Origin: an uncultured bacterium
GTDB lineage: Bacteria; Krumholzibacteriota; Krumholzibacteriia; JACNKJ01
Assembly (NCBI GenBank): GCA_963695095.1
Contig: CAVOFT010000001.1
Location: forward strand, 1,248,001-1,312,000
Reading direction: 5' to 3'
DNA: 64,000 nucleotides
This document shows, piece after piece, positions 45,624 to 57,006 of the stretch. Both the position numbers and the translations under genes were made by a program. The notes below the pieces were generated by a model that was not told the DNA's origin, searched no databases, and worked only from the letters and a program-made list of their open reading frames with translations. The stretch's first letter is position 1. Every line of letters starts with the position of its first letter.

Positions 45624-46919
45624 ATGGCTGCTGCCGGCATCGATCGGGTCACGCGCCTGGTCGCCCTCTTCACGCTCGTCCTCGTCGCCCTGCTGCTGAC
45701 CGGCGGTTGGGTCTTCCATGCGCTGCTCGCCCGCGGCCTCGCCGACTCCAGCCGGCGCCACCTCGACGAGCAGGGCCGGCTCATCGCCGCTGCCCTCGCG
45801 GCCGATCCCGAGGGCCCGCTCGAGGCCTGGCGGCGGCTGGACCCCGAGGCGCTGCGCAGCGCGGCCACCCTGGATCGCCTGGAACTGCACGACGGCAACG
45901 GGCGCCCGCTCGCCGAGGATCCCCTCTGGCCGGCGCGCGAATTGCCGGACAGCCTGATCGCCGCGCTGCGCCTGGGCCTCGCCGTGGCGCCGCCGCCGCA
46001 GGCCGAGGGCGGCGAGCTCTTCCAGTCGCTGAGCCTGCCGCTGGCCGGGCCCGCGGGGGAACTCGCCGCCATTCTCGTGCTCGAATCGGGCGAGGCCGTC
46101 AGCACGCAGCTCCAGGCGCTGCGCCGCGGGCTGTGGACGGCCACCGGCCTCGGCGCGGGCTTCGTCGTCTTCGTCCTCGTGGCGATGGCCCTCATCCTGC
46201 GCCAGGCGCGACGCCGCCAGCGCGAGCTGGATCGGGCCGAACATCTGGCCGAGGTGGGCACGCTCGCGGCCGGACTCGCCCACGAGATCCGCAATCCCCT
46301 GGCCATCATCGCCGGCCATGCCGAGCTCTTCGAACTCCAGCGCAGCGGCGATCCCGACGAGGCCGCGCGTCGCGCCGGGGAGATCGTGGCGGAAACCGAG
46401 CGGCTGCGCCGGCTGCTGGACGACTTCCTCAGCTTCGCCCGACCCAGCGACCTGCGGCTCCGCCCGCTGGCCGCGCTCGAGGTCTGGGGCCGGCTCGTCG
46501 AAGAGCAGCGTCAGCTCCACCCGTCCCTGCGCTTCGAGCTGGCGGCCCCGCCCGCCCTGCCCCCGCTGACCGCCGATTCCGATCGCCTGCGCCAGCTCGC
46601 CCTCAATCTGCTGGCCAACGCCGCGCTCGCCGCGGGACCGGGCGGGCTGGTGCGCGTCGAGCTCTTTGCCCAGGGCGAGTGGCTGCGCTCGGTGATCCGT
46701 GACAGCGGTCCGGGCGTCCCCGCGGCGCTGGTGCCGCGCCTCTTCGCGCCCTTCGTCTCGGGCCGCGAGGGCGGCACGGGCCTGGGCCTGGCCGTCTGCG
46801 CCGCCATCGCCCGCGCCCATGGCGGCAGCCTGCGGCTCAGCGCCAATGGCCCCGGCGGCGCCGAATTCACACTGGAGCTGCCCCTCGCCGCGGCCGGGCC
46901 CGCGAAGGAGACCGCATGA
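45624..46919 (+). CDS. Membrane sensor histidine kinase (NtrB/ZraS-like)
   Basis: Two TM helices around a periplasmic domain; LAHEIRNPL, NLLANA, DSGPGV, GTGLGL. Confidence 0.9.
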   Translation: MAAAGIDRVTRLVALFTLVLVALLLTGGWVFHALLARGLADSSRRHLDEQGRLIAAALAADPEGPLEAWRRLDPEALRSAATLDRLELHDGNGRPLAEDPLWPARELPDSLIAALRLGLAVAPPPQAEGGELFQSLSLPLAGPAGELAAILVLESGEAVSTQLQALRRGLWTATGLGAGFVVFVLVAMALILRQARRRQRELDRAEHLAEVGTLAAGLAHEIRNPLAIIAGHAELFELQRSGDPDEAARRAGEIVAETERLRRLLDDFLSFARPSDLRLRPLAALEVWGRLVEEQRQLHPSLRFELAAPPALPPLTADSDRLRQLALNLLANAALAAGPGGLVRVELFAQGEWLRSVIRDSGPGVPAALVPRLFAPFVSGREGGTGLGLAVCAAIARAHGGSLRLSANGPGGAEFTLELPLAAAGPAKETA

Positions 46920-48295
46920 GCCAGCGCATCCTGATCGTCGACGACGAGCCCAAGCTCGCGGCCCTGCTCGCCGAGACCCTGGCCGCTCCCGGCCGCGAGA
47001 TCGCCGTCGCGCACAGCGCGGCCGCGGCCTGGACCGCCTTCGCGGCCGCGCCCGCGGATCTCGTCATCACGGATCTGCGCATGGAGAGCGAGGAGGCGGG
47101 ACTGGCGCTCATCGAGCGGCTGCGCAGCGCCGCGCCGGGCACGCGGACGATGCTGGTCACCGCCTTCGCCAGCATCGAGGCCGGCGTGCGCGCGCTCGAG
47201 CTCGGCGCGGCGGAGTACCTCGTCAAGCCCGTGCGCCTGCGCGCCCTGCGCGAGAGCGTCGATCGCCTGCTCGCCCCGCCGACGGCCGCGGCGGGCCTTG
47301 CCCTGGCCACGGAGGGCGAGCTGGCCGGCGCCTTCGACGATATCCTCGTCGGCGGCCATCCCGGGATGCGGCGCATCGTGGAGCTGCTGCCCCGCGTGGT
47401 GGCCAGCGACTCGACGGTACTCATCATGGGCGAGAGCGGCACCGGCAAGGAGGTGCTGGCCAGGGCGATTCACGCCCACGGGCCGCGGCGGGCGAAGCCC
47501 TTCGTCCGCGTCAATTGCGCGGCGCTCGTGGAGAGCCTGCTCGAGGCCGAGCTCTTCGGCATCGAGGCGGGCGTGGCCACCGACGTGAAGGCGCGGCCCG
47601 GCAAGTTCGAGCTGGCCGCGGGCGGCACGCTGTTGCTCGACGAGATCGGCGACATGGCGCCGGGCACCCAGGCCAAGGTGCTGCGCGTGCTCCAGGAGCG
47701 CGAGTTCGAGCGCGTGGGCGGCGCCCAGACCCTGCGCGTGGACCTGCGCGTGCTGGCCGCCACGCATTGCGACTTGCAGGGGATGGTGGCCGCGGGCCAC
47801 TTCCGGGGCGATCTCTACTATCGACTCGACGTGATCCGGCTGGAGCTGCCGCCGCTGCGCGAGCGCCTGGGGGATCTCGAGCTCTTCCTGCGCTACTTCC
47901 TGCAGAAGCTCTCCGCCCGCAGCGGCCGCCGCATCGCCGGGCTCACGCCCGCCGCCCTCGAGCGCCTGCGCCGGCACGCCTGGCCCGGCAACATCCGCGA
48001 GCTGGAGAACGTCCTCGAGCGGGCCATGGTGCTCGCCGCCGGCGACCAGATCGATGTCGGCGACCTGCCCTCGCTGACGGCGCCGCCGGCGACGGCCGAG
48101 GCGGCGGAGCACCCCTTCGTGCTGCCGGCAGCGGGGATCGAGCTGGAGGCGCTGGAGCGCGACCTGATCGGCCAGGCCCTGGCCCGCACGGGCGGGAACA
48201 AGAGCGCGGCGGCGCGCCTGCTCGGGCTCACCCGGCGCACCCTGGGCTATCGGCTCGAGAAGCACGGGCTCGATCGGGCGGGGGAGGGCGACTGA
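46916..48295 (+). CDS. NtrC-family sigma54-dependent response regulator
   Basis: Receiver, [29 protein letters not shown], Fis [20 protein letters not shown] loop reads GVATDV. Confidence 0.92.
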
Positions 48296-50709: not shown

Positions 50710-52098
50710 ATGAGCGCGCGTCTACTCGTGGTCGACGATGAAGCCGGGATCCGCGAGTCCCTCGGCAAGGTCCTGCGCTATGAGGGCTTCACGGTGGAGA
50801 CGGCCCCGGACGGCCCCACGGCGCTCGCGCTCGCCGCGCGCCAGCCCTTCGACCTCGTCTTCCTCGACGTCAAGATGCCCGGCATGGACGGTCTGGAAGT
50901 GCTCGCCCGGCTGGGCGAGGGCGGCCTGGCGACGCCCGTCGTCATCATCTCCGGCCACGGCACCATCGATACCGCGGTGCAGGCGACCAAGCTCGGCGCC
51001 TTCGACTTCCTGGAGAAGCCCCTCGACGCGGACCGCGTTCTCGTCACTCTGCGCAATGCCCTGGCCTGGCTGGAGCAGCAGCGGCAGATCGAATCCCTGC
51101 GCCAGCGCCTGGGCGAAGGCGAGCAGATCATCGGGGAGAGCCAGGCCGTCAAACTGCTCCTGAAGGCCATCGAGCGGGTGGCGCCGACGGATGCGCGCGT
51201 GCTCATCACGGGAGAGAACGGCTCCGGCAAGGAACTCGTGGCGCGGCGCATTCACCGCTTGAGCGCGCGGGCCGAGGGGCCCTTCGTGGATGTCAACTGC
51301 GCGGCGATTCCGAACGAGCTGATCGAGAGCGAGCTCTTCGGTCACGAGAAGGGGAGCTTCACGGGCGCCCACCAGCAGCGGATGGGTCGTTTCGAGCAGG
51401 CGGACGGGGGCACGCTCTTCCTCGACGAGATCGGCGATATGTCCCTGAGCGCCCAGGCAAAGGTGCTCCGCGTGCTACAGGAGGGAAAGTTCGAGCGGGT
51501 CGGGGGGACCATCACCCAGCAGGTGAACGTGCGGGTGATCGCAGCGACCAACAAGGACCTGCTCGCGGAAGCGGCGGAGAACCGCTTCCGCGAAGACCTC
51601 TACTATCGCCTCAGCGTGGTGCCCCTGCAGGTGCCCCCGCTCAGGGAGCGGCCCGAGGATATCCCCTTGCTGGCCAAGCACTTCACGGAGCTGTATCTCC
51701 GCGAGCAGGGGATGCGGCCCCGGCTGTTCGCGCCTGCCGCCCTGGAGCGACTCCAGGGCGCCCGCTGGCCCGGCAATATCCGCGAGCTGCGCAACCTCGT
51801 GGAGCGGCTCCTGATCATGGCGCCGGGCGAGCGCATTGAAGTGGAGGACATCCCCCTGCCGGGGGGCGAAGCGGCGGGTGAGGAGAGCGGCCTCTTCGCC
51901 GCCGCCAGTTTCCAGGCCTTCAAGGAGCGCAGCGAGGCGGTCTTCCTGGCGCGAAAACTGAAGGAGTACGGCGGCAACGTCAGCCGCACGGCCCGCGCCT
52001 TGCAAATGCAGCGGAGCAATCTCTACAAGAAGATTGAAAAATATGGACTTACGGCCGGGAAGCCCGATCCCGACGAAGCCGCCGACGACCCCGAGTAG
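50710..52098 (+). CDS. NtrX/NtrC-family sigma54-dependent response regulator
   Basis: Receiver LDVKMP..ISGHG, GENGSGKE, GSFTGA, LFLDEIGD, FREDLYYRL, HTH GNVSRTA..RSNLYKKI. Confidence 0.92.
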   Translation: MSARLLVVDDEAGIRESLGKVLRYEGFTVETAPDGPTALALAARQPFDLVFLDVKMPGMDGLEVLARLGEGGLATPVVIISGHGTIDTAVQATKLGAFDFLEKPLDADRVLVTLRNALAWLEQQRQIESLRQRLGEGEQIIGESQAVKLLLKAIERVAPTDARVLITGENGSGKELVARRIHRLSARAEGPFVDVNCAAIPNELIESELFGHEKGSFTGAHQQRMGRFEQADGGTLFLDEIGDMSLSAQAKVLRVLQEGKFERVGGTITQQVNVRVIAATNKDLLAEAAENRFREDLYYRLSVVPLQVPPLRERPEDIPLLAKHFTELYLREQGMRPRLFAPAALERLQGARWPGNIRELRNLVERLLIMAPGERIEVEDIPLPGGEAAGEESGLFAAASFQAFKERSEAVFLARKLKEYGGNVSRTARALQMQRSNLYKKIEKYGLTAGKPDPDEAADDPE

Positions 52099-52582: not shown

Positions 52583-52639
52583 GAAGAACGCCGTAGCCAT
52601 CTTCCTCAGAGTGCGTCCACCCCACACGAGGACGAATCG

Positions 52640-55624
<2,985 letters not shown>

Positions 55625-55899
55625 GCAGCAAGGCTCTCTCGGCGACGCGCCGGCTATTCCGCGGGCCCGGTCACACCGGGCCCTTCTGCTTGGCGCTCAC
55701 AAGCTCGTTGCGTAGCGGCAGCCGACCTCCACCTTTTCTCCCAGGCGCCAAAGCCTCTGGCGACTTGAGCTTGCCCGCTCTAGCCGCCGGCAATCTAAAG
55801 AATCTTGCGCAAGTCCATGTCGGTGTACTCTGGCGCTGCGAATCGCCCATGCAAGTGGCTCATTTGCAAGGGGATAAATCCCCCGATCGCGAGCGGTTA

Positions 55900-55915
55900 T
55901 GGCATGCTCCCTGCA
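55900..55915 (+). promoter_or_regulatory. sigma54 (-24/-12) promoter
   Basis: TGGCATGCTCCCTGCA with exact GG-N10-GC spacing. Upstream dyads CTTGCGCAAG (55804-55813), TGCAA-N9-TTGCA (55850-55868) and GGGGAT-AA-ATCCCC (55870-55883). Confidence 0.7.
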
Positions 55916-55926
55916 GTTGAACGCTT

Positions 55927-56196
55927 GAAGTGAGGAGGGCGCCAGGCTTGGCAGGTATGAGGCTCTTTCCAAGCTTCCTCGAGGGACTCGAACGGAATTG
56001 ATAGGGGAAGTCAGCCGGATTCGATGTCGTTCCTCGGGCCGATCGGAAGCGTCCGATGAGTCGATTGACTCGGTCCTTGCGTGAAGTGTGGGGCAACACG
56101 CCAGGGCAATCGGCGAGTCCGATCGAAGGAGATGTACTCCTCTCCTTGATGCTGAGATGTGCGAGGCAGGAGGGCGCAAGCCCTCTTGCCTTTTTT
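55927..56196 (+). ncRNA. Candidate sigma54-dependent structured small RNA (~270 nt)
   Basis: Bounded by a sigma54 promoter and an intrinsic terminator; at least six internal hairpins; no ORF longer than 17 codons that I could find wholly inside it. Confidence 0.5.
56164..56196 (+). terminator. Rho-independent terminator
   Basis: AGGCAGGAGGGC-GCAA-GCCCTCTTGCCT then TTTTT (12-bp stem, GNRA loop). Confidence 0.85.
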
Positions 56197-56300
56197 GATG
56201 CGAGTCGGCCGCTGAGCTCACCTTGCCGGCTTCTGCCATCGACCATGCCGGGCCGGCATGGGGGACAATGGGATCCTCTTTTCTGCGATCCCGTCTAGGC

Positions 56301-56329
56301 TTGACCCTCCTTTGTGAATGCTCTAACTT
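56301..56329 (+). promoter_or_regulatory. sigma70 promoter of the act operon (possibly leaderless)
   Basis: TTGACC-N17-TAACTT, with ATG 8 nt downstream and no Shine-Dalgarno sequence. Confidence 0.55.
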
Positions 56330-56337
56330 GCGCCCCC

Positions 56338-57006
56338 ATGCAGAGCAGCAGACCGCGCGGCCGAGTCCTGTTCCCTCCCTGGACCAACGCCATTCGCCCG
56401 CTGGCGACGGTGGCGATCTTGGGCGGCCTTCTGTACACGGTTGTCTTGATCGCCTACGCCACCTCGCCCCGGACCACGAACGTCGGCTATGCTCCGACCC
56501 AGCCCGTGCTCTACAGCCACGCGCTCCACGTGGGTACCCTCGGCCTGGACTGCCGCTACTGCCACCTGGGCGTCGAGACCGGGGCCAAGGCGACCCTGCC
56601 ACCCACGCAAACCTGCATGAACTGCCACGCGAGTGTGCGCAGCGCCAGCGAGAAGCTGGCGCCCGTCCTCGCGAGCTACGCGACGGGGATGCCCATCCCC
56701 TGGGTGCGGGTGCACGACCTGCCCGATTTCGCCTACTTCGACCATAGTGCCCATGTGCGCCGCGGCGTGGGTTGCGCCTCCTGTCATGGCCGCATCGATC
56801 AAATGGAGGTGGTGAGCCAGGTCGAGCCCTTGCACATGGGTTGGTGCCTGGACTGCCATCGCCGGCCCGAGCCTCACCTGCGGCCGCTCGCCGCCGTCAC
56901 CGCCATGGACTGGGCGCCGGCAGGCGATCCGGTAGCGCTGGGCGCCGAGCTTCGCCGGGAGTACAACATCCAACCGCCGACGGACTGTTCCACATGTCAT
57001 CGTTAG
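56338..57006 (+). CDS. actA: Alternative complex III pentaheme cytochrome c subunit
   Basis: N-terminal TM; GYAPTQPVLYSH; five CxxCH motifs (CRYCH, CMNCH, CASCH, CLDCH, CSTCH). Confidence 0.92.
   Translation: MQSSRPRGRVLFPPWTNAIRPLATVAILGGLLYTVVLIAYATSPRTTNVGYAPTQPVLYSHALHVGTLGLDCRYCHLGVETGAKATLPPTQTCMNCHASVRSASEKLAPVLASYATGMPIPWVRVHDLPDFAYFDHSAHVRRGVGCASCHGRIDQMEVVSQVEPLHMGWCLDCHRRPEPHLRPLAAVTAMDWAPAGDPVALGAELRREYNIQPPTDCSTCHR

Follow-up and report, generated by a model that had tools for sequence, protein, structure and literature searches.

The 64,000-nucleotide window analysed here (positions 1,248,001 to 1,312,000 of contig CAVOFT010000001.1, from an uncultured bacterium of the Krumholzibacteriota) contains a structured element of about 270 nt, named RNA1, which is very probably an independent non-coding RNA transcribed from a sigma-54 promoter. 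It lies in the intergenic region 55625-56337, between a 994-aa open reading frame (ORF; 52640-55624, + strand) and actA (ATG at 56338). RNA1 represents an undescribed RNA family, and its fold and its G-loop motif are also new; the kind of element is an already known one, namely a sigma-54-driven small RNA (sRNA) encoded beside its activator. On balance, the data speak for a stand-alone regulatory RNA that is controlled by the adjacent activator and acts in trans through its G-rich loops, which is the full explanation that fits best. In the following, the genome of the window is designated G000; its family within the Krumholzibacteriota is f1 (12 genomes), and the other families are f2-f9.

The RNA1 sequence of the window, folded alone, has a minimum free energy of -125.6 kcal/mol (z = -4.53), and none of 200 shuffled sequences is as stable. 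Covariation was analysed on 15 sequences (14 distinct) aligned to R1, a covariance model that includes only the RNA1 core and consists of 224 positions and 72 pairs. Standard pairs are found in 91.0% of the cells, versus 78.0% in shuffles and 32-49% when the partners are slid, and changes on both sides occur in 44/72 pairs, versus 23.2 ± 2.9 in shuffles (0/500 reach 44) and 11-21 with slid partners, in an alignment that was fitted to the model and thereby favours it. The same helices are obtained when RNAalifold is run on seven sequences aligned simply with MAFFT, where 27/86 pairs are compensated. The covariation shows a fold in which several helices meet in a junction, and this junction is closed by the long-range helix P1, whose strands in genus g3 are changed to GCGAAGC/GCUUUGC; the apical loops UGGGGAA and GUGGGGCA (L3b), both G-rich and invariant, are exposed on this fold (Table 1).

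An initial annotation of this DNA, made by a model from the letters alone, had listed a series of local hairpins, among which P1 did not appear, and had proposed to look for structural conservation in relatives; the covariation described above provides it. Three of the seven stems of that list, together with the terminator, agree with the consensus fold, and the bases of the others lie in P2, P3 and P3b. The hairpin GAGTC/GACTC (56058-56071) is recovered with five pairs, 100% paired and four of them with double changes, and GTGT-GGGGCA-ACAC (56086-56099) is found again as the tip of a longer stem; AAGGAGA/TCTCCTT (56126-56147) is also present, being 86.5% paired, with a double change in only one of six pairs, and it is not kept in g3. 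Conversely, CGAG-GGA-CTCG is not a local hairpin, since its bases form the 5′ strand of P2 (55978-55985 with 56031-56038; 7/8 pairs double-changed). The two ATCGG/CCGAT hairpins have to be replaced by a single helix, into which their four arms pair crosswise (16 pairs, 14 double-changed), and the GGGCC/GGTCC pairing that was thought to close a three-way junction is missing from the consensus structure.

Table 1. Features of the RNA1 region and related elements (positions in the window, except where the coordinates carry a G000 prefix)
Feature	Position	Strand	Description	Basis
RNA1	55927..56196	+	non-coding RNA, ~270 nt	folding, alignment, covariation, RNA-library contigs, ORF/G+C checks
Sigma-54 promoter	55900..55915	+	TGGCATGCTCCCTGCA, TGGCAT-N5-CTGCA; GG 55901-55902, GC 55913-55914	pattern and conservation
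P1	55947..55953 with 56150-56156	+	long-range closing helix, CUUGGCA with UGCUGAG	covariation
P2	55978..56038	+	stem-loop with apical loop L2 (GGGGA, 56004-56008)	covariation, helices 3, 4
P3	56039..56124	+	three-way domain; base helix 56039-56057 with 56108-56124	covariation, helices 5-7
P3a	56058-56071	+	hairpin within P3	covariation
P3b	56072-56107	+	hairpin within P3, apical loop L3b; GUGGGG 56088-56093	covariation
P4	56126..56147	+	hairpin AAGGAGA/UCUCCUU, includes CU-rich stretch 56136-56147; differs in g3	covariation weak (helix 8)
Intrinsic terminator	56163..56196 (hairpin 56163-56192)	+	13-bp stem, GCAA loop, U-run (T6)	folding, homologue alignment
Activator gene	52640..55624	+	sigma-54 enhancer-binding protein, 994 aa	domain search
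C-rich box	52617..52632	+	CCACCCCACAC in activator 5′ UTR, directly followed by Shine-Dalgarno GAGGA	complementarity
Terminator-like hairpin	55663..55683	+	3′ of activator gene	folding
Palindrome	55796..55808	.	TAAAGAATCTTGC, 8/10 match to TAAAG-N3-CTTTA; candidate activator site	centred 98 nt before promoter
Distal palindrome	near 55700-55710	.	weaker copy	similarity to TAAAG-N3-CTTTA
act operon promoter	56301..56340	+	TTGACC 56301-56306, TAACTT 56324-56329; actA start codon 56338-56340	conservation
RNA2 locus	G000:C1:2666425-2666745	-	TAAAGGATCTTTA palindrome, TGGCACGCATCCTGCC promoter (L091/L092; promoter G000:C1:2666602)	pattern scan, homologues

The claim that a sigma-54 promoter precedes the RNA is borne out. 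The promoter at 55900-55915 shows the features that define the type, a GG at -24 and a GC at -12, ten bases apart (TGGCAC-N5-TTGCW), from which transcription of RNA1 would start at about 55926-55927. In the window, TGGCATGCTCCCTGCA is the only match to TGGCAY-N5-YTGCW; since 0.26 matches are expected and 24/100 shuffles contain at least one, the motif taken alone is not beyond chance. A GG-N10-GC promoter is found 39-43 nt 5′ of the RNA core in 13/13 homologous loci for which upstream sequence is available, and 12 of these loci have the strict sigma-54 pattern, the exception being L086, with ATGCA instead. Moreover, the genome encodes rpoN (Sigma54_DBD, 217 bits). The strong terminator, which the initial annotation had placed at 56164-56196, was found with its 13-bp stem and T-run at 56163-56196; its hairpin has an energy of -25.7 kcal/mol in the window, a terminator is kept in 13/13 loci with downstream sequence (-19 to -26 kcal/mol), and compensatory changes are present within the stem. 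Transcription of RNA1 would begin at a promoter type that requires an enhancer-binding protein and would end at a strong intrinsic terminator.

Three ORFs, considering either strand, overlap RNA1, and none has a Pfam match; the indels among RNA1 homologues are mostly not multiples of three, which argues that the region is not coding. The G+C content of RNA1 is 58%, versus 70% in the window and in the genome. With strong covariation and no Rfam match, the reading of this segment as a structured non-coding unit, delimited by a sigma-54 promoter and a terminator, stands.

As to its transcription, part of a 901-nt query is present in 20 public runs, 13 of them RNA libraries. All the four RNA libraries examined, from four studies, gave one contig each over 55937-56162 (188-227 nt, 95-99% identity), so that the transcript coverage which had been proposed as a check is found in 4/4 libraries; the contigs show presence only, and neither the contig-free flanks (55600-55936 and 56163-56298) nor the nine remaining RNA runs, which contain a small share of the query, are evidence. 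From one run a second contig, X2, was obtained, which extends over 56299-56487.

Among the genomes searched, RNA1 was found only in the family of the window. BLAST with the RNA1 region gave matches in 8/61 related genomes and in 6/11 of the other f1 genomes. R1 matches 9/151 genomes sampled over the phylum, all nine in f1 (8/9 besides the genome of the window), and, with the stricter filters of the search tool, 0/141 genomes in the eight other families. A targeted search of f1 added two further positive genomes, while G005 was negative, and RNA1 is therefore present in 11/12 f1 genomes. A pattern scan of metagenomes returned seven loci with four distinct new sequences (two loci are contigs of G001 and two are identical); the corresponding scan of genome contigs gave 63 matches, of which four are real, all in genomes already known, and the rest are chance 17-mers. 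The covariance search with Rfam 15 found no match at gathering score across the window and, at E ≤ 10, none on the + strand of 55600-56400; the comparison with Rfam that the initial annotation had suggested thus indicates that RNA1 matches no described family. Likewise, a full-text search returned no paper that pairs Krumholzibacteriota with "sigma-54" or with "ncRNA".

RNA1 is followed by actA-actB in 8/10 genome loci, by clpB in G006 and by a convergent gene in G003. The act operon has a promoter of its own: the pattern TTGACY-N16-19-TAnnTT, similar to the -33/-7 promoter type of the Bacteroidetes, is conserved in 10/10 act-linked loci, with its end 6-8 nt upstream of the actA ATG, and is missing in the three loci without act. 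In the window the promoter ends 8 nt before the ATG, and the actA mRNA would therefore be leaderless or nearly so; no Shine-Dalgarno sequence (SD) precedes actA. Since act is not always downstream and has its own conserved promoter, RNA1 is an sRNA in its own right rather than a leader, in agreement with the initial annotation, which had denied it the role of act leader. The alternative, a cis-acting leader (a riboswitch or a protein-dependent attenuator) for act or clpB, in which the terminator is a regulated stop under the control of the junction fold, is quite improbable. Its appeal comes from the aptamer-like junction closed by P1, with conserved junctions and loops and the terminator within 7 nt, from the same-strand gene that comes next in 9/10 genome loci, and from one RNA-library contig spanning the act promoter region. 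However, the next gene varies between act and clpB and is convergent in G003, act has its own promoter in all the act-linked loci, and in other families no gene directly follows the analogous units, which precede other small units along with a second sigma-54 promoter. The CU-rich strand can indeed pair with the 5′ arm of the terminator (-8 to -16 kcal/mol, with 10 contiguous bp in the G006 type), but in 9/11 sequences it does not surpass its shuffled versions in this antiterminator pairing (fraction 0.10-0.75), and only the two G006-type sequences beat the shuffles (0.013-0.017). A riboswitch or attenuator always stands in the 5′ leader of a gene that has no promoter of its own, which is not the position of RNA1.

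The gene directly upstream encodes a protein with TPR repeats (residues ~147-494), a sigma-54 AAA+ domain (683-849) and a Fis-type helix-turn-helix (HTH; 951-990); the Pfam matches are Sigma54_activat (9.5e-65) and HTH_8, and the GSFTGA motif is visible in the translation. A homologue of this activator is found directly 5′ of RNA1 in 10/10 genome loci. RNA1 is probably the RNA output of the adjacent regulator, and its activation by this TPR protein is likely. Palindromes like TAAAG-N3-CTTTA are highly enriched before the RNA1 promoters, with 19 sites of at least 8/10 in 13 upstream regions versus 0.99 expected, and they occur at about -97 to -121 and -196 to -218 relative to the promoters; the TPR-AAA+-HTH protein would bind these sites, about 100 and 200 bp before the RNA1 promoter. 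In G005, the f1 genome without RNA1 (locus L111, G005:C11), the truncated TPR gene encodes 534 aa and lacks the AAA+ and HTH domains, and actA follows 84 nt later: the RNA1 locus is deleted, and this joint loss is consistent with a coupling between RNA1 and the activator.

Two further observations concern this region. By eye, a CAA-N4-TTR-like motif is seen in most homologues ~40-55 nt before the promoter (~55860-55885 in the window); it stands between the activator sites and the sigma-54 promoter, where an IHF site would be expected. In addition, the window has three sigma-54 activator genes, two of the REC type and one of the TPR type, that lie together within 9 kb.

Regarding its mode of action, the initial annotation had offered two possibilities, a sponge for CsrA/RsmA and a base-pairing RNA using the CU-rich stretch ACUCCUCUCCUU, and had suggested searching the genome for csrA and hfq. 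The former gene is present in 12/12 f1 genomes; the latter is found in none of the 12, eleven of which are at least 90% complete (Hfq, PF17209), and ProQ was not found in the genome of the window, the one genome checked for it. With Hfq not found in f1 and ProQ not found in that genome, a chaperone of either type cannot be required.

The sponge reading, according to which the GGA motifs of RNA1 titrate CsrA, draws on the presence of csrA throughout f1, on the 8 GGA counted in full RNA1, a number for which the estimate of about eight was correct, and on the GGA of the L2 loop GGGGA, kept in 12/15 aligned rows. It is most unlikely, because its defining feature is lacking: GGA is not enriched (1-9 per core versus ~4-5 expected from composition, with one homologue having a single GGA), it is rarely unpaired (0-2 fully unpaired GGA per sequence, mostly one), and only three GGA columns are conserved. 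Moreover, neither the loop L3b nor the phylum-wide GGUGGGGUC loop contains a GGA. The csrA gene itself belongs to a flgL-fliW-csrA cluster (G000:C1:1850642-1853797, locus L089), and in systems of this type the known CsrA antagonist is a protein, FliW, and not an sRNA.

A very low probability is also assigned to the second possibility, a general block of ribosome binding sites by the CU-rich, anti-Shine-Dalgarno-like stretch acting as the seed. Indeed, CUCCUCUCCUUGAUGCUGAGAUGU is invariant in most sequences of the main group and CCUCC is kept in g3; however, the G006 type has UUUCUCGCC in place of the stretch, g3 lacks P4, and the f2-f9 units do not visibly share the stretch, although no formal scan for it was made. 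Its complementarity to GGAGG is specific to no target. Since its 3′ half is the 3′ strand of P4 and the following bases form P1, the stretch is largely paired, and the invariant exposed elements of RNA1 are instead the two G-rich loops.

For these loops, base pairing is the most likely mode of action, and sequestration of a protein is the second. The 5′ UTR of the activator mRNA contains CCCCACAC (52620-52627), to which GUGUGGGG of loop L3b is exactly complementary, and CCCCAC, located directly 5′ of the activator SD at -22..-12, is invariant in 6/6 main-group genomes. In genus g3 both partners differ, the loop UCGGGGGACU pairing with AGUCCCCCGG (10 bp), and in G006 the loop GGGGAAUUC pairs with GAGUUCCCC (9 bp). 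Of the 2458 candidate initiation regions in the window genome, two contain CCCCACAC, one being that of the activator, and 12 contain CCCCAC within 5 nt of an SD. The loop-specific background P is 0.0175 for G000, 0.0037 for G006 and 0.0008-0.015 for g3, and Fisher's combination over six genera, made post hoc, gives P = 2.7e-4. The G-loops would pair, independently of Hfq, with C-rich boxes just 5′ of SD sites, and the CCCCAC box in the mRNA of the activator itself would generate a feedback loop similar to that of Qrr and luxO. The overall support for this mechanism, which is post hoc, is moderate, and action by G-loop pairing, including feedback on the activator mRNA, is proposed here tentatively, as a possible rather than a probable mode. 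Full-length duplex folding gave only long-loop duplexes without meaning, and in blastn-short searches of RNA1 and of its sibling RNA2 (see below) against the window genome, any extended complementarity stayed at the level of chance (E ≥ 0.4).

The other mode would be that of a protein-sequestering RNA of the CrcZ/RsmZ type, whose UGGGG(A/C) loops titrate an RNA-binding protein, for instance a small RRM protein, and relieve its action on mRNAs. The recurrence of the loop motif, on two RNA1 hairpins, on RNA2 and across the phylum, is in line with it, as are the size of RNA1 and its multi-helical shape, with a sequence that is conserved even in stems, features not usual in an sRNA of the simple seed type; furthermore, three small RRM_1 proteins are encoded in the genome. 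The layout also corresponds to that of cbrB-crcZ with a distant crcY, both RpoN/CbrB-dependent (PMC5113210). Nevertheless, no partner protein is encoded beside RNA1, the motif is present in only two copies per RNA versus many in known sponges, and the C-rich boxes of the activator mRNA, whose flanks change together with the loops in g3 and G006, are better explained by RNA-RNA pairing; sequestration is thus rather unlikely.

A second RNA was identified through the palindrome. The genome contains a single perfect TAAAG-N3-CTTTA, among five sites of at least 9/10, and this lies 143 nt before another sigma-54 promoter. The latter is followed by RNA2, which is ~150 nt long, then a terminator, and which is kept in 10/12 f1 genomes; no conserved ORF was found in RNA2, its small ORF not being kept in homologues, and no Rfam match. 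In 9/10 genomes the palindrome is at a fixed distance of -136 to -141, and it is contained in the top of the covarying terminator hairpin of the preceding gene. RNA2 folds into a long hairpin, which has AUGGGGAC in its apical loop (UGGGGA loop), and is closed by a long-range helix. RNA1 would act in trans together with this smaller sibling, which shares the promoter type, the upstream palindrome and the UGGGGA loop.

Similar units appear to exist beyond f1. Homologues of the TPR part of the activator are present in 148/151 sampled genomes of the phylum, mostly in frames of 1015-1060 aa. Twenty loci from f2-f9 (L114-L133) were examined, two of which were dropped for masked bases, leaving 18. 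With a looser promoter pattern, allowing TGGAAC or TGGTAC, a sigma-54-type promoter is found 198-344 nt after the activator stop codon in 18/18 of these loci, and all 18 have GTGGGG within 350 nt of the promoter (0.045 expected per locus), mostly as GAGAGGUGGGGUCUC with flanks able to pair into a hairpin; Rfam at E ≤ 0.1 gave no match on 12 f2-f9 loci. RNA1, RNA2 and the GUGGGG-loop units of the eight other families might accordingly be parts of one phylum-wide system, with a TPR-sensing activator and structured sRNAs as its main outputs, forming a global post-transcriptional layer that operates either by kissing interactions of the G-rich loops with C-rich boxes next to ribosome binding sites, including activator feedback, or by titration of a protein that reads UGGGG loops; in this full extent the proposal is speculative and somewhat doubtful.

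Several findings weigh against the combined picture of activator, RNA1 and G-loop action. The RNA-library contigs carry no information on strand, ends or level, and the 5′ and 3′ ends given for RNA1 are predicted ones; as X2 already begins before the start predicted for act, a degree of read-through, or carry-over of DNA, is possible. Two genes for REC-AAA+-HTH sigma-54 activators lie just upstream, at 46916-48295 and 50710-52098 (+ strand), and with these in the vicinity it is adjacency alone that singles out the TPR protein as the activator of RNA1. The palindrome of the window is itself degenerate (8/10), and a single deletion explains equally well the joint loss of RNA1 and of the AAA+/HTH half in G005. 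The pairing idea was noticed by eye and is post hoc. In 4/6 genera the match is limited to a core of 5-7 nt, with a background P of 0.13-0.44, and Fisher's P is 0.088 without the two best genera. When complementarity of the whole RNA to the own activator mRNA and to those of other genomes was compared, the own mRNA was in the top three in only 6/27 genomes, and RNAduplex, whose energies are crude, ranked the activator region between 435th and 2402nd of 2458 for five 30-nt segments of RNA1. The 11 other genes with CCCCAC beside the SD share no theme in Pfam, also when the other CCCCACAC gene is added (12 proteins). Finally, R1 gives only noise on eight f2-f9 loci, as it gives no match in the 141 genomes outside f1; since the model misses these units, their homology with RNA1 is suggested by position and motif only.

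Some known systems offer a comparison. In Pseudomonas, the sRNA gene of the CrcZ/CrcY system is located directly 3′ of the gene of its sigma-54 activator, CbrB, a second related sRNA, encoded far from the first, has a promoter of the same type, and a short motif is repeated on the RNA (PMC5113210); all three traits recur with RNA1 and RNA2. The two systems differ in the activator, CbrB being a REC-type response regulator whereas the protein adjacent to RNA1 has TPR repeats, and in the motif, since CrcZ has A-rich AAnAAnAA motifs and sequesters Hfq/Crc, while none of these A-rich motifs is present in RNA1 and Hfq was found in 0/12 f1 genomes. In Vibrio, the sibling Qrr sRNAs depend on one phosphorylated sigma-54 activator, LuxO, are Hfq-dependent and pair with luxO mRNA among other targets (PMC3262071). 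RNA1 differs from them in its length of ~270 nt, its closed multi-helix junction, its Hfq-less lineage and the G-rich apical loops that it would use, and its pairing with the activator mRNA is a prediction. The Qrr sRNAs are ~100 nt long, and qrr1 adjoins luxO. Like CsrB/RsmY/RsmZ, RNA1 is structured and repeats a hairpin-loop motif in a genome that has csrA, but it lacks their many loop GGA motifs, and the CsrA in the genome of the window is of the flagellar, fliW-linked kind. Lastly, RsaE/RoxS of the Firmicutes are Hfq-independent and repeat a short homopolymer-like motif in exposed loops, which serve as seeds near ribosome binding sites; they use C-rich loops against the G-rich Shine-Dalgarno sequence, whereas RNA1 has G-rich loops, whose partners would be C-rich boxes located 5′ of the SD, and there is no homology.

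Almost nothing is known about gene regulation in the Krumholzibacteriota, a phylum without cultured members. The present analysis adds a new RNA family with a fold supported by covariation, a sibling RNA and a testable pairing model, as well as a candidate DNA site for a TPR-type sigma-54 activator that is very widespread in the phylum. In Pseudomonas and Vibrio, a sigma-54 sRNA is known to be encoded next to the gene of its activator, and the same layout is seen here, in a distant lineage in which no Hfq was found. If true, the phylum-wide sRNA system would operate without Hfq, as judged from f1, and ProQ was likewise not found in the one genome checked. The RNA1 family could be entered in Rfam, and it lends itself to E. 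coli reporter tests, for which the organism need not be cultured.

Some additional observations were made on the f2-f9 loci. The 5′ end of the units of f4 and f9, CAGGUAUCGGUUG, is complementary over 13 bp to the region of the activator start codon, UAACCGAUGCCUG. A further structured element of ~100 nt, with the motifs GUCAGGGG..GGAAUGGCGAGAUCC..GCGAGUAUGGACAUCCCCUCCGGUGCUCGC..CCCCUGAC, occurs in L121, L122, L129, L130 and L133, with variants in L114-L119, L127 and L128; it has no Rfam match, and in f2, f3 and f6 the activator initiation region contains (GAU)CUCGCC, which is complementary to the GGCGAGAUC loop of the element. Many of the loci possess a second sigma-54 promoter ~780-870 nt after the activator stop codon, and in the f5 and f8 loci, as well as in L117 (f2), the gene after this second promoter starts with a lipoprotein-like signal sequence.

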